Assembly: GCA_035502455.1 (NCBI GenBank)
Contig: DATJUI010000014.1
Coordinates: 6,365-70,364, forward strand
Direction: 5' to 3'
DNA: 64,000 nucleotides
Origin: Thermoplasmata archaeon
GTDB taxonomy: Archaea > Thermoplasmatota > Thermoplasmata > Lutacidiplasmatales > UBA184
Shown: piece after piece, positions 12,153-62,718 of the stretch
How the letters are laid out: every line of letters starts with the position of its first letter
Position numbering within the stretch: position 1 is the first letter of the stretch
Program-made: the position numbers and the translations under genes
The notes under the pieces: model-generated
The model's input: the letters and a program-made list of their open reading frames with translations, nothing else
Database searches by the model: none
Told to the model about the DNA's origin: nothing

Positions 12153-12938
12153 ATGCCCGAGGGGGAGCTGGTCGGCCGGAAGAGCGAAGTCGACGGGGTC
12201 GAGATCCTCGTGCTGAAGCATCCGCCCGTGAACGCGCTCAGCACGGCCCTGCTGGCCGACCTCGACCGGCAGCTCACGTCGATCGAATTGGACCCCAAGG
12301 TCCGGGCCGTGATCGTCTCGGGCGAGGGGCAGTACTTCAGCGCCGGCGCCGACCTCAAGGAGATGGCGACGCTCGACCTCGCGAACGCGCCCCGGGTCGT
12401 CCGCCAGGGCCACGCGCTGTTCGGGCGGATCGCGAGCTGCCGGGCGCCCGTGATCGCGGCGATCAACGGGCTCGCCCTGGGGGGAGGGCTCGAGCTCGCG
12501 CTCGCCTGCGACCTGCGGATCGCGGGGGAGTCGGCGAAGCTCGGCGCCCCCGAGGTCAACTACGGCCTGATGCCCGCGTACGGCGGGACCCAACGGCTCC
12601 CCCGCACGGTCGGGGTGCCGAAGGCGAAGGAGCTCATCTTCACGGGCGCGATGATCTCCGCGGCCGAGGCGCTGCGGATCGGGCTCGTCAACAAGCTGGT
12701 CCCCGCCGGCCAGGAGCTGCGCGCGGCGCGCGACCTCGCCCACGCGATCGCGCAGAAGGCGCCCCGCGCGGTCCAGGCGTCGAAGCGGGCGATCCAGGAC
12801 GGGATCGCGCGCCCGCTGGCGGAGGGGATCGAGGGGGAGACCCGGCTGTTCGAGACCGAGGTGCTGACGAGCACGGACCTCGCGGAGGGGATCGTCGCCT
12901 TCGCCGAGCGCCGCCCGCCGAAGTTCACGGGGGCGTGA
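12153..12938 (+). CDS. Enoyl-CoA hydratase/isomerase
   Basis: PVNAL, FSAGADLKE, ALGGGLELALACD, PEVNYGLMPAYGGTQRL. Confidence 0.93.
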   Translation: MPEGELVGRKSEVDGVEILVLKHPPVNALSTALLADLDRQLTSIELDPKVRAVIVSGEGQYFSAGADLKEMATLDLANAPRVVRQGHALFGRIASCRAPVIAAINGLALGGGLELALACDLRIAGESAKLGAPEVNYGLMPAYGGTQRLPRTVGVPKAKELIFTGAMISAAEALRIGLVNKLVPAGQELRAARDLAHAIAQKAPRAVQASKRAIQDGIARPLAEGIEGETRLFETEVLTSTDLAEGIVAFAERRPPKFTGA

Positions 12939-14134
12939 CCGTGCCGATCGAGTTCGAGTTCACCGCCGACCAGGAGGCGTTCCGGTCCGCGGCGCGCGCC
13001 TTCCTCCAGAAGGAGGTCGCCCCGATCGTCGCGGAGATGGACGAGACCGAGACGTTCCCGGCGGCGACCGTCCGTCGCATGCAGGAGGAGGGATACTTCG
13101 GCATCCCGATCCCCGAGGAGTACGGGGGCCTCGGGCTCGGCAAGGTCGGCTACTGCCTGTTCCTCGAGGAGCTCGGGAGGGTCGACGCGTCGCACGGCAC
13201 GATCGTCGGCGCCCACACGTCGCTCGGCACGACCCCGCTGCTCTACTACGGGACCGAGGAGCAGAAGCAGCGGTGGCTCGTCCCCGCGGCGAAGGGGGAG
13301 AAGCTGCTCGCGTTCAGCCTCACCGAACCGGGGTCGGGGAGCGACTCGGGCGCGGTGCACACGGTCGCGGAGCGGCAGGGCGACCGATGGGTCGTCACCG
13401 GCACCAAGATCTACGTCTCGAACGGCCGCGAGGCCGACACGGTCATCCTGATGGCGGCGAACGACGCGAAGCTCGGCCCGAACGGCGGGGTGACCGCCTT
13501 CGTCGTCGACACGAACCTCCCCGGGTTCAAGGTCGGCCGCTCCGAGAAGAAGATGGGGCTCCACGGCACCTCCACCGCCGAGCTGATCCTCGACCACGTG
13601 GAGCTCGGGCCCGAACGGGTGCTCGGCGAGGTCGGCAAGGGGTTCCACGCCGCGATGACGGCGCTCGACGTGGGCCGCGTCTCGCTCGGGGCCGCGAGCC
13701 TCGGCGGCATGGAAGCGGCGTGCGCCGAGGCGCTCGCCTTCGCCCAGAACCGCACGCAGTTCGGGCTGCCGATCAGCGAGTACGAGGCGATCCAGTTCAA
13801 GCTCGCCGACATGGCGATGCTGATCCACGCGCTCCGCTACATGGTCTACCACGCCGCGGCCCGGCAGGACCGGCTGGGGACCGACCCGAAGCGGTGGACC
13901 CGGCTTCAACGCCAGGAAAAGACCCGCGAGGCGGCGACCGTGAAGTGCCTCGCGTCGGAGTGGGCGAGCGCGGTGATCGACGAGGCGCTCCAGATCCACG
14001 GCGGGCTCGGCTACATCCGGGGGACGCCGATCGAGCGCGCCTACCGCGACGCCCGCATCAGCGAGATCTTCGAGGGGACGAACGAGATCCAGCGGCTCGT
14101 CGTCGCCCGCGACCTCATGGCGCGGGGGCTGTAG
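12935..14134 (+). CDS. Acyl-CoA dehydrogenase
   Basis: FSLTEPGSGSD, GTKIYVSN, QIHGGLGY, RDARISEIFEGTNEIQR. Confidence 0.95.
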   Translation: MTVPIEFEFTADQEAFRSAARAFLQKEVAPIVAEMDETETFPAATVRRMQEEGYFGIPIPEEYGGLGLGKVGYCLFLEELGRVDASHGTIVGAHTSLGTTPLLYYGTEEQKQRWLVPAAKGEKLLAFSLTEPGSGSDSGAVHTVAERQGDRWVVTGTKIYVSNGREADTVILMAANDAKLGPNGGVTAFVVDTNLPGFKVGRSEKKMGLHGTSTAELILDHVELGPERVLGEVGKGFHAAMTALDVGRVSLGAASLGGMEAACAEALAFAQNRTQFGLPISEYEAIQFKLADMAMLIHALRYMVYHAAARQDRLGTDPKRWTRLQRQEKTREAATVKCLASEWASAVIDEALQIHGGLGYIRGTPIERAYRDARISEIFEGTNEIQRLVVARDLMARGL

Positions 14135-28859: not shown

Positions 28860-29090
28860 TCAGTCGTTCCCGGGCGCCCACCAGCCCCAGACGAAGAAGG
28901 CGACGAGCGCGCCGACGATCCCGATCGTCGTGCCGAGCACCTGGGGCGCGAGGGCCGGCAGTCCGACCCAGTACGAGATCTCGAAGACCGCACCCGCCGC
29001 GGCGAGGAGGGCGACCGCGAAGAACGCCACGAACGGCCCGACCCGGGTGCCGACGCGGGCGGACGGGGCGGCGGGCTCGCTCGGGCTCAT
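28860..29090 (-). CDS. Small two-helix membrane protein (76 aa), probable oxidase accessory subunit
   Basis: ATGA overlap with oxidase stop; MSPSEP...FVAFFAVALLAAAGAVFEISYWVG...TTIGIVGALVAFFVWGWWAPGND. Confidence 0.7.
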   Translation of the reverse strand: MSPSEPAAPSARVGTRVGPFVAFFAVALLAAAGAVFEISYWVGLPALAPQVLGTTIGIVGALVAFFVWGWWAPGND

Positions 29091-31810
29091 GCGGCGCTCA
29101 CCCACAGGACCCCCCACAGGCCCATCACGAGACCCGTCTGGACGCCCGAGCCGCTCCCGGACTCCCCGCTCGGATCGTACGAGTACGCGACCGGGTTCGT
29201 GAGCCCGTAGAGGTAGACGCCCGGCGCGAGCGTCGCGCTCACGGTCTCGGTCGCGTCGATCCGCAGGGGACCGCTCGAGACCCCGACGAGCCCGGTCGCG
29301 GGGTCGATCCGTTCGAGCTCGAACGGGTACGGCAGCGTGTAGTTGTGTTCGATCACGTACTGCTGCTGCGCGTTGGCCGCGGTCGAGGAGACGTTGACGA
29401 GGTAGTTGGTGATCCCGATCGAGGAGAGGGGAACCTCCCAGGTGAACGCGACGGGGCCGCCCGCGCCCGGCACGGTCGCGGCGAGCGTGGGGCCGGGGAC
29501 GGAGAAGTTGAACACGCCCTCCGGGTTCGCCACGAGGGACGCCGTCGCGGCCGTCACGACCGGGGGATCGTAGATGTCGCCCGCCCCCCCGTTCGCGGTG
29601 AAGTCGGCGAGGCTCTGCCCGGTCGCGCCCGGGACCGGAAGGACGATCAGCGCGGCCACGTCGACCCCGAACCACGGCCCGTCGTACTCTCCGTCGGGCG
29701 CCCCGTAGACGCCCGGTTGGGTCGGGGCCGCGAAGCTCGCGTACGACGTCGAGCCCGGCACGACCTGCGTATTGACGGGCGCCTGCTCGCGGAACGGGAG
29801 GTAGACGGACTGGGTCGCCCCCGAGGCGGTCATGTTGAGCTGCACCCATTGGCCCGCGTAGGCCACGATCGCGTTGTCGAACGTGCCGTTGATCGCCCCG
29901 CTCTCCGTCGCCGTCCAGTAGTACTGCTGCCCGTAGAGCGCGACGAACTCGGTGTCGGCCGGGTCGCCGCCGCTCCCCGAGATCCCGTTCGAGACCGAGA
30001 ACGCCCCGGGCGTGGAGGCCGTGACCGCGAAGGCGAGGAAGATCGCGACCGACGCGATCCAGGCCGCTTCGGCCCGCTCCCGCCGAGGCCGCGGGGCGCG
30101 CCGGGCGAACGGGAGATCGTGCACGGGCACGCGGGCGGCCGGGGGGGTGGTCGACTGCGCGGCGAGCCGGACCGCCTCGTCGAAGGAGAGTCCCGACGCG
30201 CTGAAGAGCGCGCCTCGCAAGACGGTCAGGAACCCGTTCGCGACGAGGAACAACTGGCCGACGAGCATCACGACGATGCCGGCGAACAGCAGCAGCTGGT
30301 ACTCGGTGATCGCGGGGACGATGGGGAGGATCACTTCGCGACGCAGGACGCCCAGGTTCCCGAGCTGGTCCATCGCGAGGACGATCGTCGTGCCGCCCAC
30401 CAGCGTGAACAGAAAGTGCACCTGGGCGAGCCGGGCCGAGAACCACCGGCGGCCGGTGAGGACCGGGAAGAACGCGTACAGGAGAGCGAAGCCGCCCGCG
30501 ACGATCGCCAGGATCGTGATCGCGTGAAAGTGCGCCAGCACGAACATGCTGTTGTGCACGTCGACGTCGGCCGGGATCGTCGCGTTGATCGGGCCGGTGA
30601 GGCCGCCGAAGATCGACCCCCCGAACGCGAGCGCCGAGAACAGAGCGACCGCGTTCCACTCCCACTGCGAACCGGGGACGCCCTTGAGCGTCATCCAGAC
30701 GGAGAAGAACGTGATCGCCGACGGGATGACGATCGCGAACGACAGGAACATCGTGATCCAGCTCGACCAGGCGGGGAGCGGCGTGAGGTACAGGTGGTGG
30801 ATCCCGAGCAGCGGCGTGAGGACCACGAACATGATCGCGGAGGCGACCGCGAACCGGTAGCTGTAGATCGGGCGGCGGGCGAGGATCGGGATCAGGACGT
30901 AGAGCCCGACGATCGGCAGGAGGAACAGCACGTAGACGATCGCATGCCCGAACATCCAGAAGACGACCTGGTTCGTGAGCGGGCTCAGCGCGACGCCGGC
31001 GTACGCCGCGAGCATGTCCCACCCCGCCGCGACGATCAGTGGCCCGTAGGTGAGCGGCATCAGCACGAGCGTGCCCATCAGGAACCAGAGGAAGACCGGG
31101 TAGCGCCGCCCGGCGGCCGCCGCTGCGTGCTGGCGGTACCAGTCGAGGACGTGGGCGGCCATCCACCACGTCCAGAGGAGCGCCGCCCCCGCGAGCGCGA
31201 TCCACCCGAGGAAGAAGATCGGGCTCACGACGTACGCGCTCGACCCGTTCACGCCGAGCGGCGAGAGGAAGTACCACCCGATCGCCGGGAAGTAGTTGTC
31301 GTTGAACGGGGCGAGGTAGATCGGCCCCTGCAGCAGGAGCATCGAGGCGTTGAGGAGGCCGACCGAGAGGTAGAGGGTCCACTTGCGCCGGGGCGTGATC
31401 CCGAGCGCGTTGATGAGCAGCAGGCCGAAGACGGCCATCTCGACCTGCTGGGCGAACCCGAACAGTTCGCGGATGCCGTGCAGCGTGATCGACGAGTAGA
31501 TCTCCTGCGTCGAGAGGTGGAGGTTGCTCTGCGTCGCGTACGCGACGACCTGGGTCTGGAACCCGAACGCGTCGAAGCCGCCGACCGCGCCCCAGACGAG
31601 CCCTGCGATCAGCATCAGCATCGTGATGCGGGTCATCCAGTCGCGCTGGAGCAGGAAGACCCGCTCGAACAGGCGCATCTTCGCGAGCCGCCGCCGGATC
31701 GCCTCTTCGGTGTCGTCGAGGAACTGGATCAGCGCGGGCGGTCGCTCGAAAACGGCGACGCCTTCGCCCTCGGCGCCGGTCTGTGATGGCCGAAGATCGG
31801 TCGCGGTCAC
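29087..31810 (-). CDS. B-family heme-copper oxygen reductase: subunit I fused to CuA-less subunit II and a further cupredoxin-like domain
   Basis: All six His ligands: TLHG, FGHAIVY (cross-link Tyr), GIHH, HNSMFVLAHFH; RR in LGVLRR; PSAIT; C-terminal TM helix plus two beta-rich domains. Confidence 0.9.
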   Translation of the reverse strand: MTATDLRPSQTGAEGEGVAVFERPPALIQFLDDTEEAIRRRLAKMRLFERVFLLQRDWMTRITMLMLIAGLVWGAVGGFDAFGFQTQVVAYATQSNLHLSTQEIYSSITLHGIRELFGFAQQVEMAVFGLLLINALGITPRRKWTLYLSVGLLNASMLLLQGPIYLAPFNDNYFPAIGWYFLSPLGVNGSSAYVVSPIFFLGWIALAGAALLWTWWMAAHVLDWYRQHAAAAAGRRYPVFLWFLMGTLVLMPLTYGPLIVAAGWDMLAAYAGVALSPLTNQVVFWMFGHAIVYVLFLLPIVGLYVLIPILARRPIYSYRFAVASAIMFVVLTPLLGIHHLYLTPLPAWSSWITMFLSFAIVIPSAITFFSVWMTLKGVPGSQWEWNAVALFSALAFGGSIFGGLTGPINATIPADVDVHNSMFVLAHFHAITILAIVAGGFALLYAFFPVLTGRRWFSARLAQVHFLFTLVGGTTIVLAMDQLGNLGVLRREVILPIVPAITEYQLLLFAGIVVMLVGQLFLVANGFLTVLRGALFSASGLSFDEAVRLAAQSTTPPAARVPVHDLPFARRAPRPRRERAEAAWIASVAIFLAFAVTASTPGAFSVSNGISGSGGDPADTEFVALYGQQYYWTATESGAINGTFDNAIVAYAGQWVQLNMTASGATQSVYLPFREQAPVNTQVVPGSTSYASFAAPTQPGVYGAPDGEYDGPWFGVDVAALIVLPVPGATGQSLADFTANGGAGDIYDPPVVTAATASLVANPEGVFNFSVPGPTLAATVPGAGGPVAFTWEVPLSSIGITNYLVNVSSTAANAQQQYVIEHNYTLPYPFELERIDPATGLVGVSSGPLRIDATETVSATLAPGVYLYGLTNPVAYSYDPSGESGSGSGVQTGLVMGLWGVLWVSAA

Positions 31811-39958: not shown

Positions 39959-40483
39959 TCAACGGCGGTCCAGCCGGTACTCGGACTTCACCAAGCCCTT
40001 CGGATAGGAGCGAGTCCTCACGTGCTTGAGCCGGAGGTCGTGCGGCAACACCCCGAACAGGGGGATACCGTCCCCGATGAGAACCGGGTACCGATTGATG
40101 ATGATTCGGTCGACCAGGTTCGCCCGTAGGAAATTCTGGATCGTCTGTCCGCCGTCGACGTAGATGTGTTTCACCCCGCGCCGGGCGAGCCGGGACACCA
40201 CCTGCTTCGGGGTGGCCGTCATCACCGTGCAGTCGGCACCGGCCGGCACTATCACCCGGGCCGGAGATCGGCTGAGAACGATCACCGGCTTTCGATAGGG
40301 CCATTTCGCGAGGCCCGCCGCCCAGTCGAAGGTCCTACGCCCGATGACGTGGGCATCCACGGTCGCGACGAACGCACCGAAGCCGTTGTGGTCGTATTCC
40401 CCTTCGGGGAGGATGTCAAAGCTCAGGTCTTTCCGCGCGATGAACCCGTCGAGACTTACTCCGACGAAGGCGGAGACCTGCAT
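39959..40483 (-). CDS. Dihydrofolate reductase-like (RibD C-terminal) protein
   Basis: SLDGFIAR, IGRRTF, IYVDGG, PVLIGDGIPLF. Confidence 0.9.
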   Translation of the reverse strand: MQVSAFVGVSLDGFIARKDLSFDILPEGEYDHNGFGAFVATVDAHVIGRRTFDWAAGLAKWPYRKPVIVLSRSPARVIVPAGADCTVMTATPKQVVSRLARRGVKHIYVDGGQTIQNFLRANLVDRIIINRYPVLIGDGIPLFGVLPHDLRLKHVRTRSYPKGLVKSEYRLDRR

Positions 40484-40835
40484 CGTGACGCTTCACTTCC
40501 CCAGACCTCATCTAGTCTTTCCGTGGGCCGATGAGTGGGCGGAACGGGCGAGCCGCTCGAGCGAGATCCGAGCGCACCTCCCCTTCCCGGCGCGGTAGCG
40601 AGCGGGCGACGCGCGAACCCCGGCCGACTGGACGGAGGACGCGCGCGTCGGGGGACCGCCCGCCGATCACGGAGAGCGGGGGTCAGAGCGAGGGGCGCGG
40701 CGGGCTCCTTCGAGTCCCACGTCGGCCCCCACTCTCCAGAAACTGAGGGAACTCGCAGTTTCGGATTCGAAGGTTCCGATGCCGGGCCGGGATCAGCCCG
40801 TAGAGGGCCGAATCCCGGACGTGGTCAGTGGGAGG

Positions 40836-41462
40836 TCAACGGGACCCGAGAGGGGGCTTCCGGGCGATCACCACGTCCATCGCCTTCCGATGGGGAACGC
40901 CGCTCGCGGTGGAAATGAACTCCGCCTGCCTCGACTCCAGGATCTGCCAATCCCAATAATAGCCCAGCAGCTCGCCCGAACGGAACGGAGTCGCAAATGG
41001 ATTCGACGTCTGGGGAGGGATGTAGGGCTTCGGTACGTCGGCATTCATGGCATGGATCCCCCCGGGCGCCGTATGGGCTTTGAAGTGGTCCAATCGGGCG
41101 GCCCGAATACGACGGGGAAGGTTATTGAGCGCACCCGAGCAAAACACCCCGTCCACCCGGTGGCTCAGTCGGTAGGTCCGCAGGTCCCCGACGACGAATC
41201 GGGCGTTGACCCCGAGCCGAGACGCCCGGTGCTCCGCCTTTCGGACTCCCACACTCGAGATATCCACGCCCACGACGCGGTAGCCTCGCCGGGCAAAGTA
41301 GATCGAGTCCCGGCCTTCGCCACAACCCAGGTCGACCAACGTACGGAGCGGGCGCGGAAGTGAGCGGGCGAGGCGAATGACGTCACGGGCCAGATGGGTC
41401 GGCTTGCTTCCCCAGTACAGGCCGGGCCGAGCGTAACGTTCATCGTAGATCGGCTCACTCAC
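40836..41462 (-). CDS. Class I SAM methyltransferase (TehB-like)
   Basis: VDLGCGEGRDSIYFARRG, VGVDIS, FRSGELLGYY. Confidence 0.88.
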   Translation of the reverse strand: MSEPIYDERYARPGLYWGSKPTHLARDVIRLARSLPRPLRTLVDLGCGEGRDSIYFARRGYRVVGVDISSVGVRKAEHRASRLGVNARFVVGDLRTYRLSHRVDGVFCSGALNNLPRRIRAARLDHFKAHTAPGGIHAMNADVPKPYIPPQTSNPFATPFRSGELLGYYWDWQILESRQAEFISTASGVPHRKAMDVVIARKPPLGSR

Positions 41463-41772
41463 CGCTCGCGCTCCTCCCTACCGGCGTCGGTCTCGCCCCG
41501 AGCTGCCGAGAGAGCCGGTCGCCGCATAAGAACTCGACGGGATCGACCGCGGGTTGGCAATTCCGGTCCAACGACTGGCATGCCGAACCCGCCGACCCTG
41601 CCCTTGTCGACCTACGACGTCGGTTGCCATGCGGAGAGAACGGGTGGGTGGCTCCGGACAACGGCGTCCTCAGCTTCTAAGGGGCCGGAGCCCGACAGAG
41701 GACGTACCTTCGGACGCCGTGCCCTGCCCCGAGAGAAGACGCTCGGCCGATGACGTCACCGCGCTCTGCACG

Positions 41773-42384
41773 TCAAGGGCGCTCGATCTCGAGAGGCGGG
41801 CGGCGAGTCGCCTTCCGCCGGGAGCGGACCCTCTTTCTCACTACCCGCTTGCTCGTGCCGAGGGGAACGAGCGGACGGAATCCGAGCCGAGCGAACATGG
41901 AGTCGGTTCCACTCCACAGGAAGGAACCCGAGGCCGGCTTCCCTCGAGTATCGATCGGATATCCGTCGACCGTTCCTCCCCCGTCGGCGGCGATCAGGCG
42001 GAGGGCGCCTTCTAGCGCGGCTTTCGCGATTCCCTCCTTCCGGCGATCACGGTCGACGAAGAAGCACGTGATCCGCCGGTCGGGCGGCGCGACCCCCAAC
42101 TTGGCGTAGGCCGTCATTCGGCCCGGAAGCTCGGTGGGCGGTCCGAACTGGCACCACCCGACGAGCGTCGACGCGTCGTAGACGAGGGCAGCGTGGGAGC
42201 GATGCGTTCGGACAAGAGTCTCCTTTCGCCTCCGCCGCCGAGCCACTGACGGAACCCGCTCCCCGGGACCCAGATGGAACTGGAGGCACCAGCAACCGTT
42301 CCAAACGCCGTTGTGCTTTTCCATGATCCGGACAAAGTCCGGCCAGGTCGTGGACCCTAGCGTCCGAATCGAGTATCGCGTCAT
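41773..42384 (-). CDS. GNAT family N-acetyltransferase
   Basis: TWPDF...GCWC, VGWCQFGP, ITCFFV...RKEGIA..AL, VDGYP, FLWSG. Confidence 0.85.
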   Translation of the reverse strand: MTRYSIRTLGSTTWPDFVRIMEKHNGVWNGCWCLQFHLGPGERVPSVARRRRRKETLVRTHRSHAALVYDASTLVGWCQFGPPTELPGRMTAYAKLGVAPPDRRITCFFVDRDRRKEGIAKAALEGALRLIAADGGGTVDGYPIDTRGKPASGSFLWSGTDSMFARLGFRPLVPLGTSKRVVRKRVRSRRKATRRPPLEIERP

Positions 42385-42535
42385 CGGCCCTCGTGTTGCG
42401 GGTTCGGATGTACTCTCCCACGGTCCGATTGACAGGGAGCGGATAGGCCCATCTGTCCCGGGCCGTCCGGTCCGCGGCGGAGCGCGTAGCGGGACTCTGC
42501 AATGCTTAATCAAGCGGCTCAGTCCGTCGAACATC

Positions 42536-43819
42536 GTGAACGCCATTCGCCTCGAGACCGCGCAAAGGTTCGTCCTGGGTCGTCAGGGACTGTGGCCCGG
42601 CCGACGCTGGGAGGGGCGGAAGGGGGTCGATCTTGCCGTTCGTTACGCCGGTTCGGTGCAATTCGACCCGTTGGATGTGGTCGGCCGTAGCCACGACCTC
42701 GCGCTGTGGGGAAGAATTGTCCGCTACAGGAAAGAGCACCTGGAGGAAGCGCTCTACAAGACGCGGACGCTGTTCGAGACGGGCGGGAACGTCCAAATCC
42801 GCCCGATCGAGGAGTTACCGTATCTGCGCATCGTCATGGAGCGCAAGATCGCCGAAGATCGATGGCGCAGGTTCGCTCGAGCGAAGGCCGCTCTCCTCGC
42901 GAGAGTGACTCGCGAACTCGAGAGCCGAGGACCGCTCGGTCCGGGGGACTTCGAGGGACCGGGCGAGAAGCGGATCCACAACTACCGAGCCGGGAAGGAA
43001 TCGGGCCTCGCCCTCTACTTTCTATGGCTCAAGGGCGACGTCATGATCGCGTACCGGCGGCGAGGCGAGAAAGTGTTTGATCTCACGGATCGCCTCCTCT
43101 CCCGCTCCATCCCCGAGATCCCGGTGACGGAGGCCGAGGAACATCTCCTCCTCGGGACGCTTCGTCAACTGGGACTGGCGAGCACTTCCGAGTGGCTCCG
43201 TCACGCGTGGCCCCGAGTCGGTCGACCAAGTCTCCGTAGCGAGTGGCGGGATCGGACGCGTCGTTGGATGGAACAGGGGGTCATCCAGGAGATCGAGGTG
43301 GACGGTTGGAAGGGTAGGCCGGTCATGCTGGTGGAGGCCGCCGCCCAACTCGAGACCTTGCGTTCGTCCGAGGTGCCGCCGGAGTGGCGACCTCGGTCGA
43401 CCACGACGGACGAGGAAGTCGTGTTCCTGGCTCCCCTCGAGGTGGTGGCGGGACGGGACCGGGCGGCCCAACTCTTCGACTTTGAGTACGTGTGGGAAGT
43501 GTACAAGCCGGCGTCGAAGAGACGATGGGGGTACTACACGCTCCCCGTGCTGTGGGGAAATCGACTGTGCGCGCGTATCGAGTTGCGGACTGATCGAACG
43601 ACCCAGTCCCTCGTCGTCCTAGGGTTCTGGCCGGAGGACCCGCAGACTCGGCGTGACCCGGAATTCGCGGACGCGCTGGGCCGCGCCCTCGTTCGACTAT
43701 CGGACTTCCACGACGTGGCAAGGATCGACACCCCCGGGCTCGGCACCCCCGCGATGCGGCGACGGGTGGCCGCCGCGGTACGTCGGGTTCGCAGGCAAGC
43801 TGGTGCGGCCGAGGCGTGA
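42536..43819 (+). CDS. AlkZ/YcaQ-family (HTH_42) crosslink-repair DNA glycosylase
   Basis: QFDPLDVVGRSHDL (QxD), FLAPLE, FDFEYVWEVYKPA.KRRWGYYTLPVL; start uncertain. Confidence 0.85.
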   Translation: MNAIRLETAQRFVLGRQGLWPGRRWEGRKGVDLAVRYAGSVQFDPLDVVGRSHDLALWGRIVRYRKEHLEEALYKTRTLFETGGNVQIRPIEELPYLRIVMERKIAEDRWRRFARAKAALLARVTRELESRGPLGPGDFEGPGEKRIHNYRAGKESGLALYFLWLKGDVMIAYRRRGEKVFDLTDRLLSRSIPEIPVTEAEEHLLLGTLRQLGLASTSEWLRHAWPRVGRPSLRSEWRDRTRRWMEQGVIQEIEVDGWKGRPVMLVEAAAQLETLRSSEVPPEWRPRSTTTDEEVVFLAPLEVVAGRDRAAQLFDFEYVWEVYKPASKRRWGYYTLPVLWGNRLCARIELRTDRTTQSLVVLGFWPEDPQTRRDPEFADALGRALVRLSDFHDVARIDTPGLGTPAMRRRVAAAVRRVRRQAGAAEA

Positions 43820-43829
43820 GAGGCCCTTA

Positions 43830-43912
43830 TGCCGGGGCCAGGATTCGAACCTGGGAACTCCTGCGAGAGCAGATCTTGAGTCTGCCGCCTTTGGCCGCTC
43901 GGCCACCCCGGC
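43830..43912 (-). tRNA. tRNA-Leu(CAA), no intron, CCA not encoded
   Basis: GCCGGGG/CCCCGGC acceptor, GCAGA-CTCAAGA-TCTGC anticodon arm, long variable arm, CCAGG-TTCGAAT-CCTGG. Confidence 0.97.
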
Positions 43913-47772: not shown

Positions 47773-49017
47773 GTGGCGGAGGCGCCGGCGGCCCCGGCCG
47801 AGGCGACGCGGCGGCGGGCGCTCGAGGCGGTCTTCGGCGCGACGTTCTTCGTCCGCTTCGCGTTCGGCATCACGCTCGCGGTCTTCGCCGAATACCTGAC
47901 CGGGCATCCCGGGCTGAGCGGCGGGACGGTCGCGGCGATCGGGCTCGTGAGCGGGGCCGCGCCGGTCGGCGAGTTCTCGACGGTCCTCCTGTCCGGGGTC
48001 GGCGCCGACCTGTGGGGGCGGTTCCGGGTGCTGTTCCTCGGGATGGGCGGGGCGGCCGCCCTGTTCGCGCTCGTCTTCCTGACCCGGGACCCGCTCGCGC
48101 TGGCCGCGATCAACTTCGCGTTCGGCGTCGCGAGCGGCGCGATCCTCGCCGCCAGCCTCGCGGTCGTCGCGGAGCGGGCGGCGAGCGACGAGCGCGGCTT
48201 CGAGATGGGACGGTTCGACGCGGTCAACCTCTCGGGGTGGATCGCCGGCTACGCCTTCGGGCTCGTCCTCCTCGACCTCGTGCCGGACCCGAAGCTCGGG
48301 ATCTCGTTCCTGTTCGGGTCGCTGATCCTCGGCCTCGGCTTCTTCGTCGCCCTGCACCTCGCGCGGGGCATACCGCCGCGCCACCCCGCGGCCGGCCATC
48401 GGATCCGCGAGATCCTGGGCACCGCGTTCCGGGGACCGGTGCTCCTCGTCACGTTGCCGTGGCTCGTGATCTACATGCTGATCGGCTTCGCGCTCGTCTT
48501 CTTCGGGAGCGCGGCGAAGACGACCTCCGTCCCGCTGCTCTACCTGGCGGCGGGCATCGCCGCGGGCGGCGCGCTCCTCGTCGTGACCCAGCCCCGGTTC
48601 GGTCGGCTCGCGGACCGATTCGGCCGGGACCGGATGATGGCGGTCGGGGTCGCGGGGTTCGTGGCGGTGATGGGATGCGCGTCGTTGCTGGTCGCCTACG
48701 GGACACCGATCCCGCTGCTCGTCGCGACCGGGGCGAGCGTCCTCGCCGCGCTCGCCTACGGACCGGCGGCCCTCGCCGCGCTCGCGGATCTCGCCCAGCG
48801 CACGAGCCGGGCGACGACGATGGCGATCTACTCGCTGACGATCTCCCTCGGCATGTGGGTGGGTCTGATCGCCGGCACGCAGCTCTACGACCGCCTCGGG
48901 AACGAGGGGCTGTACGTGTTCTTCGGATCGATCGCGGTCGGCCTGGTCGCGCTCACCCTGGCCCGGTTCGCGACGGAGCGCCGGGCCGGTGCGAGCCCTA
49001 CGACTCCGGTTCGATGA
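47773..49017 (+). CDS. MFS transporter
   Basis: About 12 TM; GVGADLWGR and GRLADRFGRDR motif A copies. Confidence 0.88.
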   Translation: MAEAPAAPAEATRRRALEAVFGATFFVRFAFGITLAVFAEYLTGHPGLSGGTVAAIGLVSGAAPVGEFSTVLLSGVGADLWGRFRVLFLGMGGAAALFALVFLTRDPLALAAINFAFGVASGAILAASLAVVAERAASDERGFEMGRFDAVNLSGWIAGYAFGLVLLDLVPDPKLGISFLFGSLILGLGFFVALHLARGIPPRHPAAGHRIREILGTAFRGPVLLVTLPWLVIYMLIGFALVFFGSAAKTTSVPLLYLAAGIAAGGALLVVTQPRFGRLADRFGRDRMMAVGVAGFVAVMGCASLLVAYGTPIPLLVATGASVLAALAYGPAALAALADLAQRTSRATTMAIYSLTISLGMWVGLIAGTQLYDRLGNEGLYVFFGSIAVGLVALTLARFATERRAGASPTTPVR

Positions 49018-52440: not shown

Positions 52441-52588
52441 TGCGGGGGGCCGGAGTTCCCGGCGGCCGGCCGCGCGGGCCGGCACGCCCTTTGAACCGGC
52501 GCATGCCCTGGGCAACAGGGTCCTAAGCCCTGCCTCGGTGGCCCCGTCGACGGCGTCGGACGGTTTGGCCGAGCTGGAGCACCCCCGC
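52441..52588 (-). tRNA. tRNA-Leu(UAG) with two non-canonical introns (21/22: 52538-52564; 59/60: 52455-52489)
   Basis: Removing both introns gives an 86-nt cloverleaf: GCGGGGG/CCCCCGC acceptor, CAGGG-CTTAGGA-CCCTG, TGCC-CAG-GGCA variable arm, GCCGG-TTCAAAT-CCGGC, discriminator A; BHB at both introns. Confidence 0.92.
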
Positions 52589-52615
52589 ACGGTGAGATCG
52601 GCTCGGGAGGATAAG

Positions 52616-52722
52616 TAGCCCCGGCAGGAGTTCCGGCCGGCGGGGAGCCGCTCCCCCGCGGCGTTCGAACCTGCGTCGCGAGATCCAGAGTCTCGCATGA
52701 TTGGCCACTACACCACGGGGCT
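52616..52722 (-). tRNA. tRNA-Gln(CUG) with a non-canonical T-loop intron (59/60: 52630-52663)
   Basis: Removing the 34-nt intron gives a 73-nt cloverleaf: AGCCCCG/CGGGGCT (A1-U72), CGAGA-CTCTGGA-TCTCG, GCAGG-TTCGAAT-CCTGC; strict BHB. Confidence 0.94.
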
Positions 52723-52747
52723 ACGGAGAGCGCCACCGACGCGGGGC

Positions 52748-52754
52748 GGATAAA
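52748..52754 (-). promoter_or_regulatory. Putative TATA box for the tRNA-Gln/tRNA-Leu operon
   Basis: TTTATCC on the minus strand, 26-32 nt upstream of tRNA-Gln position 1. Confidence 0.55.
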
Positions 52755-52889
52755 CGTTGCCCGACGACGGCGAGCGCCGCACCGAACGTGGGGGTCCCGA
52801 CGCGTTCCGCGCGCGCTCGCGCCGCGCGGCGACCACACGGCACAAATAGCCGAGGACCGTCCCCCGCCGGTCCATGGCTGGAGGGGGGC

Positions 52890-54704
52890 ATGGCGGACGG
52901 AGTACCGAGCGGGTCGGTCGACCGACGGAGCGAGCCCCCGGCCGACCCCGGAACCCCCCGGATCGGGGCGCGCGCGCCCGCCTCGCCCGCCGCTAGCACC
53001 GCCCGACGCTCCGCCCTGCGCGCCGCCGCGATCTACGCGGCGATCCCGCTCGTCGCGGGCGGGATGACGCTCGCGACGGTCGGGCTGTCGGGTTCGGGCA
53101 TCGCCTCGTACTTCCCGCTCGCCGGCGTCGACGTCTTCTACTCGTTCCTGCGGATGCTGGCGGCCTACGCGGCGTCGCTCGGCTTCGCGCTCGCGTACGG
53201 CTACTACGCCGCGACGCACCGGACCGGCGAGCGCGTGATGATCCCCGTCCTCGACATCCTGCAGTCGGTCCCGATCCTGGGCTTCTTCCCGATCGCGATC
53301 GTCTTCTTCGTCGACCTCACGCCCGGCAGCTGGATCGGCGCGAACCTCGCGTCGGTCTTCCTGATCTTCACCTCGATGGCGTGGAACATGGTCTTCGGCG
53401 TCTACGAGTCGCTGAAGACGCTCCCGTCCGACATGAAGGAGGCCGCGGAGACGTTCCACGTCCGCGGGATCCTGCTGTTCCGCCGGGTCCTCTATCCGGC
53501 CACGATCAACCGGCTCGTCTACAACTCGGTGCTCTCGTGGACCGGCGGCTGGTTCTTCCTCGTCGAGGCGGAGATCTTCACCACGAACGGGTCGAACGCC
53601 CTCGCCGGGATTGGTAGCTATCTCTCGTTCGCCGCGAGCGCCCAGAACGGCGACAAGTTCCTGGCCGGGATCCTCGTGCTCGTGATCGTCATCGCCCTGC
53701 TCGACTTTGCGGTGTGGCGGCCCCTCGGCCACTACGCGGAGCGGTTCCGGTTCGACCAGAGCCCCTCGGGCGAAGCGGAGTCGGTGGCGGCGCCGGACCC
53801 GCGCAGCCGGTTCCGGCGGGCGACCTCGTACGTGACCCAGGGCGTACGGGCGGGCGTGACGCGGATCACGACCCCGCTGGTGCAGTTCGCGGCGATCACG
53901 ATCCGCCCGGCCCGCAAGCCGAGCCCGACCCGGCGCACGATCCTGTACTACCTCGCGCTCGGCGTGATCCTGGTCGCCGTCTGGCTGATGGTGATCGCGA
54001 TCGCGGTCGCGGTCTTCCACGTCTACACCCAGCCGATCGTCGGCTCGGTCCGCCGGCAGATCCTGCAGCTGCCGCTCGCGATGGGCGCCTCCACGCTGCG
54101 GGTCGTCGCGGCGTACGCGGTCTGCCTCGGGATCTCGTTGCCGCTCGCCTACTGGATCGCGCGGCGGCCGCGTGCGGGGCGGGTAGGCCTCCCGATCGTG
54201 GAGGTGATCGCCTCGTTCCCCGCGACCGCGCTGTTCCCGGTGATCATCTTCGAACTGATCCCGGTCCTGACCCCGGAGGGGGCGGCGATCCTGATGCTGA
54301 TGACGGGGATGATCTGGTATCTCTTCTTCAACCTCCTCTCGGGGATGCGGGCGCTCCCGCCGGATCTGGAGGAGGCGTCGCGGTCGTTCGGACTCAAGGG
54401 TCGGAGGTTCTTCTGGCGGGTCGTCCTCCCGGGGATCTTTCCCGCGCTCATCACCGGGTCGATCACGGCGTTCGGGGGCGGCTGGAACACGCTGATCGTC
54501 GCGGAGTACCTCAACTCCGGCACGGGCCACTCGCTGAGCCTGCTCGGGATCGGCCAGGCGATCGACATCGGCTACGTCGAGCCGAACGGGATCCCGTTGA
54601 TGGTCGCGGCGCTGTTCACGCTGATCGCGACCGTCATCGCCATCAACGAACTCATATGGAAGCCGCTCTACCGACGGGCGGTCGAGCTGTACCGGTACGA
54701 CTGA
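52890..54704 (+). CDS. NitT/TauT-type ABC permease with two membrane domains
   Basis: PVLDILQSVPILGF, AWNMVFGVYES, PALITGSITAFGGGWN..IVAE. Confidence 0.9.
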   Translation: MADGVPSGSVDRRSEPPADPGTPRIGARAPASPAASTARRSALRAAAIYAAIPLVAGGMTLATVGLSGSGIASYFPLAGVDVFYSFLRMLAAYAASLGFALAYGYYAATHRTGERVMIPVLDILQSVPILGFFPIAIVFFVDLTPGSWIGANLASVFLIFTSMAWNMVFGVYESLKTLPSDMKEAAETFHVRGILLFRRVLYPATINRLVYNSVLSWTGGWFFLVEAEIFTTNGSNALAGIGSYLSFAASAQNGDKFLAGILVLVIVIALLDFAVWRPLGHYAERFRFDQSPSGEAESVAAPDPRSRFRRATSYVTQGVRAGVTRITTPLVQFAAITIRPARKPSPTRRTILYYLALGVILVAVWLMVIAIAVAVFHVYTQPIVGSVRRQILQLPLAMGASTLRVVAAYAVCLGISLPLAYWIARRPRAGRVGLPIVEVIASFPATALFPVIIFELIPVLTPEGAAILMLMTGMIWYLFFNLLSGMRALPPDLEEASRSFGLKGRRFFWRVVLPGIFPALITGSITAFGGGWNTLIVAEYLNSGTGHSLSLLGIGQAIDIGYVEPNGIPLMVAALFTLIATVIAINELIWKPLYRRAVELYRYD

Positions 54705-61770: not shown

Positions 61771-62718
61771 TCAGCGGACGGCGAGCACGGTCTTCCCCAC
61801 GGCGGTGCGGGCGCGGCTCTCGGCGATCGCGCGGGGCCCGTCCGCGAGCGGGAGCACCCGGGTGACCGGCACCGTCAGCGAGCCCGCGACGACCGCGGAG
61901 AACAGGCGCTCGAGCGTCTCCGCCCGAGGCTGAAAGTCGAGGTTCACGCGGCGTACCCCGTCGATCCGGCCCGCCGCCTCGTCGGCGACGAACATCGTGG
62001 TCACCGCGACCCCGCCGCGGCGGACGAGGGCGGCGAGCCGGGCGAACGTCGGCCGGTCGCTCCCCGCATCGAGCAGGCCCGAGAGCCCGTCGCCGTGGGC
62101 GCGCCGCACCCGATCGGCGAGGTCGCCTTCGGCCGGGTCGAGCACCTCGGCCGCGCCGAGCCCCTGGAGGAGGCCGCGGGACGCCGGACGGGCGGTGGCG
62201 ATCACGTGCACCCCCGACGCCGCCGCGAGCGCGGTCGCGATCGAGCCGACCCCGCCGGAGGCGCCGACGACGAGCAGCGTCGCGCCGCGTCCGAGCGCGA
62301 GCTCGTCGAGCGCCCCGAGCGCGGTCATCCCCGACGTCGGGAGCGCGGCGGCCGAGCGAGCCGAAAGGCCATCCGGGATTCGCGCGAGCGCGAGCCGTTC
62401 GGGGGCTGCGGTCCACTCGGCGTACGTCCCCGTACCGACCGGGTCGTGAAGGACCTGGCCCGCCACCCGCTCGCCCACGTGGAAGCGCCGGACCGCGCCG
62501 CCGACCGCCGCGACGGTGCCCGCACCGTCCAGCCCGACGACGAGTGGGAACACGTGGGGCCGTCGCCCCTCGAAGAGGCCGTCGATCAGCTTCCAGTCGA
62601 ACGGGTTCACCCCCGCCGCCTCGAGACGGATCAGGATCTCGTCGTCCTTCGGCTCGGGCGTCGGCAGCTCCATCAGCTCGGGGACGGTTCGGAACGCCCG
62701 GACCGCGACCGCCCGCAC
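61771..62718 (-). CDS. NADP-dependent oxidoreductase (MDR/quinone reductase family)
   Basis: GVNPFDWK, GLDGAG, GTYAEW, VGASGGVG, GKTVL. Confidence 0.9.
   Translation of the reverse strand: MRAVAVRAFRTVPELMELPTPEPKDDEILIRLEAAGVNPFDWKLIDGLFEGRRPHVFPLVVGLDGAGTVAAVGGAVRRFHVGERVAGQVLHDPVGTGTYAEWTAAPERLALARIPDGLSARSAAALPTSGMTALGALDELALGRGATLLVVGASGGVGSIATALAAASGVHVIATARPASRGLLQGLGAAEVLDPAEGDLADRVRRAHGDGLSGLLDAGSDRPTFARLAALVRRGGVAVTTMFVADEAAGRIDGVRRVNLDFQPRAETLERLFSAVVAGSLTVPVTRVLPLADGPRAIAESRARTAVGKTVLAVR

Follow-up and report, generated by a model that had tools for sequence, protein, structure and literature searches.

The window analyzed here is a 64,000-nucleotide (nt) stretch of DNA from a Thermoplasmata archaeon (contig DATJUI010000014.1, positions 6,365 to 70,364), with a GC content of 72% and an aerobic gene set in which COX1 (heme-copper oxidase subunit I) is present. 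Its minus strand carries a tRNA-Gln(CUG) gene and, 27 nt downstream, a tRNA-Leu(UAG) gene, the former with one insert and the latter with two. Very probably, the region 52722..52441 (-) represents two functional tRNA genes interrupted by three bulge-helix-bulge (BHB) introns, which are removed by protein-based splicing. The parts of the two genes are listed first, starting with tRNA-Leu.

Two tRNA genes with three introns

52588..52441, minus strand: pre-tRNA-Leu(UAG), with the letters GCGGGGGTGCTCCAGCTCGGCCAA / ACCGTCCGACGCCGTCGACGGGGCCAC / CGAGG…GGTTCAAA / GGGCGTGCCGGCCCGCGCGGCCGGCCGCCGGGAAC / TCCGGCCCCCCGCA
52565..52588, minus strand: tRNA-Leu(UAG) exon 1, GCGGGGGTGCTCCAGCTCGGCCAA, 24 nt, tRNA positions 1-21 (acceptor 5' strand, D-stem 5' strand, D-loop)
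52538..52564, minus strand: tRNA-Leu(UAG) intron 1, ACCGTCCGACGCCGTCGACGGGGCCAC, 27 nt, at 21/22 in the D-loop
52490..52537, minus strand: tRNA-Leu(UAG) exon 2, CGAGG…GGTTCAAA, 48 nt, tRNA positions 22-59
52455..52489, minus strand: tRNA-Leu(UAG) intron 2, GGGCGTGCCGGCCCGCGCGGCCGGCCGCCGGGAAC, 35 nt, at 59/60 in the T-loop
52441..52454, minus strand: tRNA-Leu(UAG) exon 3, TCCGGCCCCCCGCA, 14 nt, tRNA positions 60-73; CCA not encoded
52722..52616, minus strand: tRNA-Gln(CUG) gene with one intron
52664..52722, minus strand: tRNA-Gln(CUG) exon 1, tRNA positions 1-59, with the T-loop UUCGAA at its end and the terminal letters GCAGGTTCGAA
52630..52663, minus strand: tRNA-Gln(CUG) intron, 34 nt, at 59/60 in the T-loop
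52616..52629, minus strand: tRNA-Gln(CUG) exon 2, TCCTGCCGGGGCTA, tRNA positions 60-73; CCA not encoded
52749..52758, minus strand: conserved TATA-box-like motif AACGTTTATC, about 30 nt upstream of tRNA-Gln

Intron positions in the Leu gene were assigned by standard class II tRNA numbering, with a 3-bp D-stem and an 11-nt D-loop. Exon 2 contains the 3' strand of the D-stem, the anticodon arm with UAG, the long variable arm, the 5' strand of the T-stem, and the T-loop UUCAAA. An earlier note on this DNA had proposed a tRNA-Leu(UAG) with introns of 27 nt at 21/22 and 35 nt at 59/60, and the minus-strand letters match that proposal exactly; the bulges, stems, and GGCC/GGCC helix that it named are all present in the window. 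The 86-nt Leu cloverleaf that it expected after excision was likewise recovered, as a class II tRNA-Leu(tag) called by ARAGORN solely after both introns had been excised; the precursor and each of the single-spliced forms gave no ARAGORN call. When spliced, the Leu sequence aligned across both junctions with the intron-less tRNA-Leu(CAA) of the window (GGCCAA/CGAG with GGCCAAAGGC and GGTTCAAATCC with GGTTCGAATCC; in junctions, a slash marks the ligation point). The predicted ligation junctions of the three introns are CTCGGCCAA/CGAGGCAGG, GGTTCAAA/TCCGGCCCC, and GGTTCGAA/TCCTGCCGG, and on the 3' side GGTTCAAA is followed by TCCGGCC… and GGTTCGAA by TCCTGCC…. No ARAGORN call covered the unspliced Leu gene in the raw window, and the Rfam tRNA model gave no report for it even at E<=10, so that both tools missed the gene, as the earlier note had anticipated for standard annotation.

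All three introns have two bulges on opposite strands, the 3-4-3 spacing, and both flanking helices, h and h', around a central helix, H. Since no bulge or flanking helix is missing in any of them, none falls into the relaxed-motif class (HBh', hBH, BHL). In Leu intron 1, H is GGCC/GGCC, the bulges are AA^A and AC^C, h' is CCGUC/GACGG, and h is formed by C16-U17-C17a with G23-A24-G25, an alternative to the D-stem. In Leu intron 2, h is the T-stem (5 bp), the bulges are AA^G and AC^U, and h' is GGCG/CGCC, with an additional inner hairpin; its central helix, UUCA/GGGA, has three pairs and one mismatch of A57 with G (window positions 52493 and 52460), which is absent from the earlier note. The motifs are thus of the near-canonical hBHBh' form, with the A57xG mismatch in one central helix as the sole departure.

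The third intron, that of tRNA-Gln(CUG), had gone unmentioned in the earlier note. Its motif is again hBHBh', with the T-stem (5 bp) as h, UUCG/CGGA (4 bp) as H, bulges AA^C and AC^U, and GCCG/CGGC as h', and the minimum free energy (MFE) fold of the Gln precursor shows the complete BHB. With the intron excised, the product was accepted by ARAGORN as tRNA-Gln(ctg), 74 nt in its call. The raw ARAGORN call (tRNA-Gln(ctg), 52649-52724, minus strand) is wrong at both ends, with a start 2 nt too early and an end within the intron, and the Rfam tRNA model scored the gene at 22.4 bits versus a gathering score of 29.

The motif AACGTTTATC occurs at identical spacing in the window and in eight related loci (L001 and L003-L009), and it is likely the promoter of a dicistronic Gln-Leu transcript. 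Because this TATA-like motif lies upstream of Gln and the 27-nt spacer between the genes has no comparable motif, the two genes are probably transcribed together. Among the window genes, CAG accounts for 232 of 246 Gln codons and CUA for 2 of 1061 Leu codons; tRNA-Gln(CUG) is therefore needed, as the major Gln decoder.

An unbiased scan of the window, in which every BHB-like site pair on both strands was spliced in silico, singly and in pairs, and the products were submitted to ARAGORN, retrieved precisely the three Gln and Leu introns. The same scan returned four spurious double-intron "tRNAs" in coding regions, with "introns" of 50-110 nt and products of 89-97 nt (48078-48327, 54099-54254, and 12826-12987 on the plus strand; 62279-62459 on the minus strand). 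We judged these four to be false positives that reflect the background rate in 72% GC DNA.

The Gln-Leu locus in Lutacidiplasmatales

Related loci were surveyed, at one genome per species, with a 24-nt word from the middle exon of the Leu gene (GGCAGGGCTTAGGACCCTGTTGCC). At least 119 contigs matched. Among the matches listed, 118 were Thermoplasmata metagenome-assembled genomes (MAGs) from peat, forest, and other soils, and since Candidatus Lutacidiplasma silvani AcS3-62 and UBA184 are among them, the order is Lutacidiplasmatales. The Gln-Leu pair was present in at least about 115 species-level MAGs of Lutacidiplasmatales (UBA184), with the gene order ABC transporter, tRNA-Gln, tRNA-Leu, metallophosphoesterase kept. 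The metallophosphoesterase adjoining the tRNAs had hundreds of relatives at 54-62% identity, of which the named ones were labeled "Thermoplasmata archaeon"; both these relatives and the matching contigs agree with the earlier note, which had spoken of a Thermoplasmata-like archaeon. The comparative set consisted of 119 nonredundant loci among the matches listed, namely, the window, 2 metagenome contigs, and 116 MAG contigs.

Two observations concern the sample itself. The single match outside Thermoplasmata is a contig of an unrelated DPANN MAG (Woesearchaeota UBA10207, DUGD01000003.1; L098), on which a tRNA-Leu has the same 24-nt word in its anticodon arm; this tRNA has no D-loop intron and is apparently ordinary, and the contig stops in the T-arm, which leaves the 59/60 site out of view. 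In four MAGs, the Gln-Leu locus was present on two contigs with differing introns (L036/L094, L081/L100, L105/L114, and L079/L119), which points to mixed strains or species in these bins.

The two-intron Leu gene recurred in the related MAGs that the earlier note had suggested surveying, with both introns in 117 of the 119 loci. The 59/60 intron was present in all 119 (32-38 nt; 116 distinct sequences) and the 21/22 intron in 117 (24-35 nt; 114 distinct sequences). Over the same loci, exon 1 had 4 variants, exon 2 had 6 variants with two variable columns, and exon 3 did not vary in any parsed locus. No intron-less Leu copy was seen among the 119 parsed loci with this middle exon, all of which carry the 59/60 intron; an intact Leu(UAG) gene, for which the earlier note had recommended a check, was thus not encountered in this set. 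The 5' bulge started with AA in every locus, and the central helix of intron 1 was paired at 4 of 4 positions in 115 of 117 loci. That of intron 2 always consisted of U-A, U-G/A, and C-G pairs plus A57, which stood opposite G in 113 loci, U in 4, and A in 2. A Watson-Crick partner of A57 thus occurs in only 4 of 119 loci; G seems to be selected at this position, for a reason that is not obvious.

Two loci (L028, JAJZDF010000069.1; L044, JBAUZT010000011.1) had no intron 1 and kept the 59/60 intron. Both read GGCCAA/CGAGG at this position, which is precisely the predicted ligation junction. Because the other introns of these two loci resemble those of different relatives, the comparison suggests two independent, precise losses of intron 1.

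The Gln intron was found in 118 loci (34 nt in 117 and 33 nt in one) and was never absent. In 104 distinct orthologues, Gln exon 1 had 4 variable columns and exon 2 was invariant. The central helix had 4 of 4 pairs in 43 of the 44 strictly parsed loci, and 99.8% of its cells were paired. With regard to intron transposition of the Thermoproteales type, the 59/60 introns of Gln and Leu are of similar length (34 versus 32-35 nt) and have similar 3' ends (CCGGRAAC), a part dictated by the pairing with UUCR plus the bulge; their interiors differ.

Covariation was assessed in an ungapped alignment of 65 distinct Leu precursors and in 104 distinct Gln precursors. For Leu, 94% of cells were paired and 14 pairs had two-sided changes (in intron 1, 4 of 5 in h'; in intron 2, 10 of 11 in the stems); none of 500 shuffles reached the observed values, and slid registers were 34-57% paired. 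For Gln, 93.6% of cells were paired, and all 9 intron-stem pairs changed on both sides. Of the outer helices, the T-stem was 100% paired for both 59/60 introns and the 16-17a/23-25 helix was 97.9% paired. The central helices varied on the intron side alone (G-C to G-U and U-A to U-G), as is expected where the exon side is fixed.

A BHB-plus-ARAGORN scan of about 0.95 Mb of related loci gave no further recurrent intron-bearing tRNA; the "introns" that it reported in tRNA-Ala(CGC) were rejected as trimming artifacts around an intact gene. Within the window, two of the four tRNA genes are affected. Judged by these comparisons, the intron trait is order-wide and not peculiar to one gene.

Splicing endonuclease and splicing route

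The tRNA splicing endonuclease EndA of the lineage was sought within and beyond the window. No match was obtained by tblastn in the window and about 1 Mb of related loci, and a search seeded with a 144-amino-acid fragment of the Archaeoglobus fulgidus EndA returned only proteins of about 100-190 amino acids and no Thermoplasmata alpha'2 enzyme. P0285/P0438 was reached by searching cluster representatives with a profile and then looking up cluster members. This protein (354 amino acids) is encoded on dozens of contigs from soil, under the annotation "tRNA-intron lyase [Thermoplasmata archaeon]." One of these contigs, JBKQUP010000026.1, belongs to the same MAG as JBKQUP010000029.1 (L025), which carries the two-intron Leu gene, and both contigs are of 67-70% GC.

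P0438 contains the domains tRNA_int_endo_N (PF02778) and tRNA_int_endo (PF01974), twice. Residues 77-336 aligned colinearly with residues 61-292 of the A. fulgidus alpha'2 enzyme, and residues 187-354 aligned with residues 4-171 of the Methanocaldococcus jannaschii alpha subunit (168 versus 168 amino acids, with no indel of 3 amino acids or more). In this C-terminal repeat, the segments HFRAY, SHARYLV, and GVRKEF aligned with the catalytic motifs (Tyr/His/Lys). At the site of the crenarchaea-specific loop (CSL; A. fulgidus residues 174-178), P0438 reads YGSRIGDRLELSL and the A. fulgidus enzyme reads YGSEKGDLVTLSL, with no insertion; over YGS-EKGDL-VTLSL it is colinear with the A. fulgidus enzyme and 6-10 residues shorter than the A. 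fulgidus-CSL chimera. By these alignments, P0438 is an alpha'2-type EndA, predicted to act as a homodimer, and it appears to be devoid of the specificity loops L1/CSL, L2/ASL, and L3.

Two other candidates were rejected as the EndA of this lineage: P0254, chosen by amino acid composition, lies on a locus of only 64% GC, and P0283 (75% GC) is an orphan whose best relatives are Methanomassiliicoccales-like at no more than 50% identity. P0283 is an alpha'2 EndA on L130 (logan SRR22388289_2054223), and no relative above approximately 50% identity was found in a collection of 5.8 billion proteins; L130 apparently represents an unsampled high-GC, Thermoplasmata-like lineage.

In the route that we propose, each intron boundary would fold in the precursor into two 3-nt bulges with a 4-bp helix between them and helices on both flanks. 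At 59/60, the T-stem would act as the anticodon stem does for introns at 37/38, and the intron's 3' end would find its pairing partner in T-loop nucleotides 54-57. For the intron at 21/22, that partner would be nucleotides 18-20a of the D-loop, with nucleotides 16-17a taking the place of 10-12 in pairing with 23-25. This 16-17a/23-25 helix would compete with the mature D-stem (10-12/23-25), so that neither the D-stem nor the D/T elbow would be present before splicing. Cleavage by a homodimeric alpha'2 EndA would follow the second nucleotide in each bulge; the exons would next be sealed by an RtcB-type ligase, with CCA addition as the last step. From the conservation of the loci, we infer that cleavage by EndA and exon ligation take place in the cell; by analogy, the chemistry of cleavage, ligation, and CCA addition would follow established archaeal tRNA splicing, and the alpha'2 EndA of the lineage would be the responsible enzyme. 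These are BHB introns of known type, and no new machinery or mechanism is indicated.

Several points weigh against this reading. Thermodynamic folding was nonsignificant at 72% GC (z-scores of -1.4 and -1.8). The double-BHB structure of the Leu precursor has a free energy of -73.0 kcal/mol versus -83.7 kcal/mol for the MFE fold, which is without the central helices, and nearest-neighbor folding therefore fails to single out the BHBs. With its A57xG mismatch, found in 113 of the 119 loci, Leu intron 2 deviates from the strict motif. In reviews, alpha4 and alpha'2 enzymes are described as acting on BHBs at canonical positions only (PMC4090602, PMC5829648), and the wild-type alpha'2 EndA of A. 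fulgidus "hardly cleaved" a D-loop BHB intron in vitro (PMC3241643). The pairing of EndA with the tRNA genes depends on MAG binning and concerns one EndA gene in one MAG. Thermodynamic folding, given its z-scores, was dropped as uninformative. Because the scan produced spurious calls and the folding z-scores were nonsignificant, the evidence from the window by itself is suggestive only; the comparative evidence is decisive.

Of the alternatives, the one that survives best, which we nevertheless regard as improbable, is that the introns are removed but that the loop-less alpha'2 EndA is insufficient alone, at least for the D-loop intron. Removal would then require a second paralogue, some accessory factor, or a fixed sequence of events (for example, T-loop intron first, or cleavage before the core folds). 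The poor cleavage of a D-loop BHB by the A. fulgidus enzyme is rescued by the crenarchaeal CSL at 174-178 (PMC3241643), P0438 has no insertion at that very site, and the sample of EndA is as small as stated above. However, BHB recognition by archaeal EndAs is independent of the tRNA body (PMC4090602), and the D-arm of the Leu precursor is refolded, as indicated by the pairing of 16-17a with 23-25 in nearly all cells of the alignment. Since an intron also sits in the T-loop, the D/T elbow held responsible for steric hindrance cannot form. About 1 Mb of related sequence yielded no second EndA-like gene, which is a weak test.

That the inserts are retained, either in pseudogenes or in mature tRNAs with D- and T-loop expansions of about 30 nt, is very improbable. 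Splicing is deduced here from sequence comparison, and standard finders miss the Leu gene. Yet the exons are near-invariant over more than 110 species and the inserts are nearly all distinct, the reverse of pseudogene decay, and the inserts keep the exact 3-4-3 bulge-helix-bulge spacing that is required by the splicing endonuclease only. Insert 1 was lost precisely at the predicted junction in two lineages, and tRNA-Gln(CUG) serves 94% of Gln codons. The interaction between the D- and T-loops is conserved in tRNAs, and a 35-nt insert in the T-loop would destroy it. Chance resemblance or an assembly artifact in GC-rich DNA can be set aside as having a negligible probability: the four spurious scan calls and the GC-rich shuffles that fold nearly as well would fit it, but both are refuted by the recurrence of the identical structure and gene neighborhood in over 120 independent assemblies, which stem from many projects and many sequencing technologies.

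Comparison with known systems and neighboring features

Several known systems can be set beside that of Lutacidiplasmatales. In Crenarchaeota, especially Thermoproteales, BHB introns occur at 20/21, 22/23, 59/60, and other positions, and multi-intron tRNAs are found (PMC4090602). Lutacidiplasmatales resemble these lineages in having introns outside the anticodon loop, at the same 59/60 site and at D-loop sites, with up to several per gene, and in that the BHB rather than the sequence defines the intron (PMC4090602). In contrast, the (alpha-beta)2 EndA of these lineages bears the crenarchaea-specific loop, and relaxed motifs (HBh', BHL) are numerous among their introns, whereas the introns of Lutacidiplasmatales are of the hBHBh' type with at most one conserved A.G mismatch and are paired with a loop-less alpha'2 enzyme. 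In Aeropyrum pernix, pre-tRNA-Thr2(UGU) has a canonical BHB in the D-loop; it is transcribed and matured in vivo, and EndA alone cuts it in vitro (PMC3241643). The likeness lies in the canonical BHB in the D-loop, which in Lutacidiplasmatales is known from sequence; the A. pernix EndA has the CSL, whereas the Lutacidiplasmatales EndA resembles, at the CSL site, that of A. fulgidus, an alpha'2 enzyme that is without the CSL and hardly cuts the A. pernix substrate.

Two exceptions are known on the euryarchaeal side, both with enzymes other than alpha'2. Candidatus Micrarchaeum acidiphilum (ARMAN-2) has noncanonical introns, with 56% of its tRNA genes disrupted, and an epsilon2 EndA (PMC3239211). 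It is comparable as a lineage once placed in or near Euryarchaeota with introns at varied noncanonical positions, but its epsilon2 enzyme is a three-unit form with the ASL loop and its motifs are in many cases relaxed, whereas the enzyme found here is a two-unit, loop-less alpha'2. Methanopyrus kandleri has D-arm introns of the HBh' type and a loop-less (alpha-beta)2 EndA (PMC5829648); it shares with Lutacidiplasmatales a euryarchaeal affiliation, a D-arm intron, and an EndA without specificity loops, and it differs in having a heterotetramer that cuts a relaxed motif inefficiently, versus a homodimer type and a near-canonical motif here. The introns in the window are like euryarchaeal 37/38 introns in their hBHBh' motif and enzyme class and, for the 59/60 site, in a 7-nt loop on a 5-bp stem with the intron behind the sixth loop nucleotide; they are unlike them in their position in the tRNA and in the presence of two introns in one gene.

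According to reviews, lineages with alpha4 or alpha'2 enzymes have a single intron per gene, at 37/38 (PMC4090602), and the specificity loops L1/CSL, L2/ASL, and L3 are tied to noncanonical introns (PMC5829648). Noncanonical positions and multiple introns are said to have coevolved either with enzymes of the (alpha-beta)2 or epsilon2 type or with the insertion of specificity loops (PMC4090602, PMC5829648, PMC3241643). No report of noncanonical tRNA introns in Thermoplasmata or Thermoplasmatota was found in the literature searched, and introns are unmentioned in the paper describing Lutacidiplasmatales (PMC9287336). The "unexpected splicing biology" of the earlier note thus holds for the positions and the multiplicity of introns in this lineage; it does not hold for the motifs, which are near-canonical, or for the enzyme, an ordinary alpha'2 EndA.

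Our wider interpretation is a tentative one, to which we assign slightly less than an even chance: a whole order of Thermoplasmatota would have fixed introns in D- and T-loops, with two of them in one tRNA and another in the major tRNA-Gln, that are served only by a loop-less alpha'2 EndA. If so, intron position, intron multiplicity, and a central helix containing an A.G mismatch would be within reach of this "narrow-specificity" class, and the rule that EndA architecture and specificity loops dictate tRNA gene disruption would need an exception. Comparative data characterize it as an apparently order-wide, selectively maintained exception to EndA/tRNA coevolution, in a widespread and abundant soil order. 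Refolding of the precursor through the 16-17a/23-25 helix, which would keep the tRNA core open, is a possible explanation, and the locus offers a natural substrate-enzyme pair for asking whether the position independence of alpha'2 enzymes is intrinsic where the motif is strict or depends on refolding. Because ARAGORN misses Leu and miscalls Gln, and Rfam scores neither above its gathering threshold, the tRNA complements and completeness statistics of such Lutacidiplasmatales MAGs may be undercounted.

Elsewhere in the window, a stretch of approximately 4 kb (about 40000-43900) has a GC content of 0.63-0.68 versus 0.72 and abuts the intron-less tRNA-Leu(CAA) (43830-43912, minus strand). Its genes are of accessory type and encode an AlkZ-like DNA glycosylase (42311-43819), a GNAT protein, an S-adenosylmethionine (SAM) methyltransferase, and a RibD_C protein; no integrase was seen, and the stretch may be an acquired island. 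COX1 directly follows the metallophosphoesterase in L001 and L003-L005 and does not do so in the window or in L006-L009; in the window it lies at 29087-31810, about 20 kb from the metallophosphoesterase, a local rearrangement within the order.

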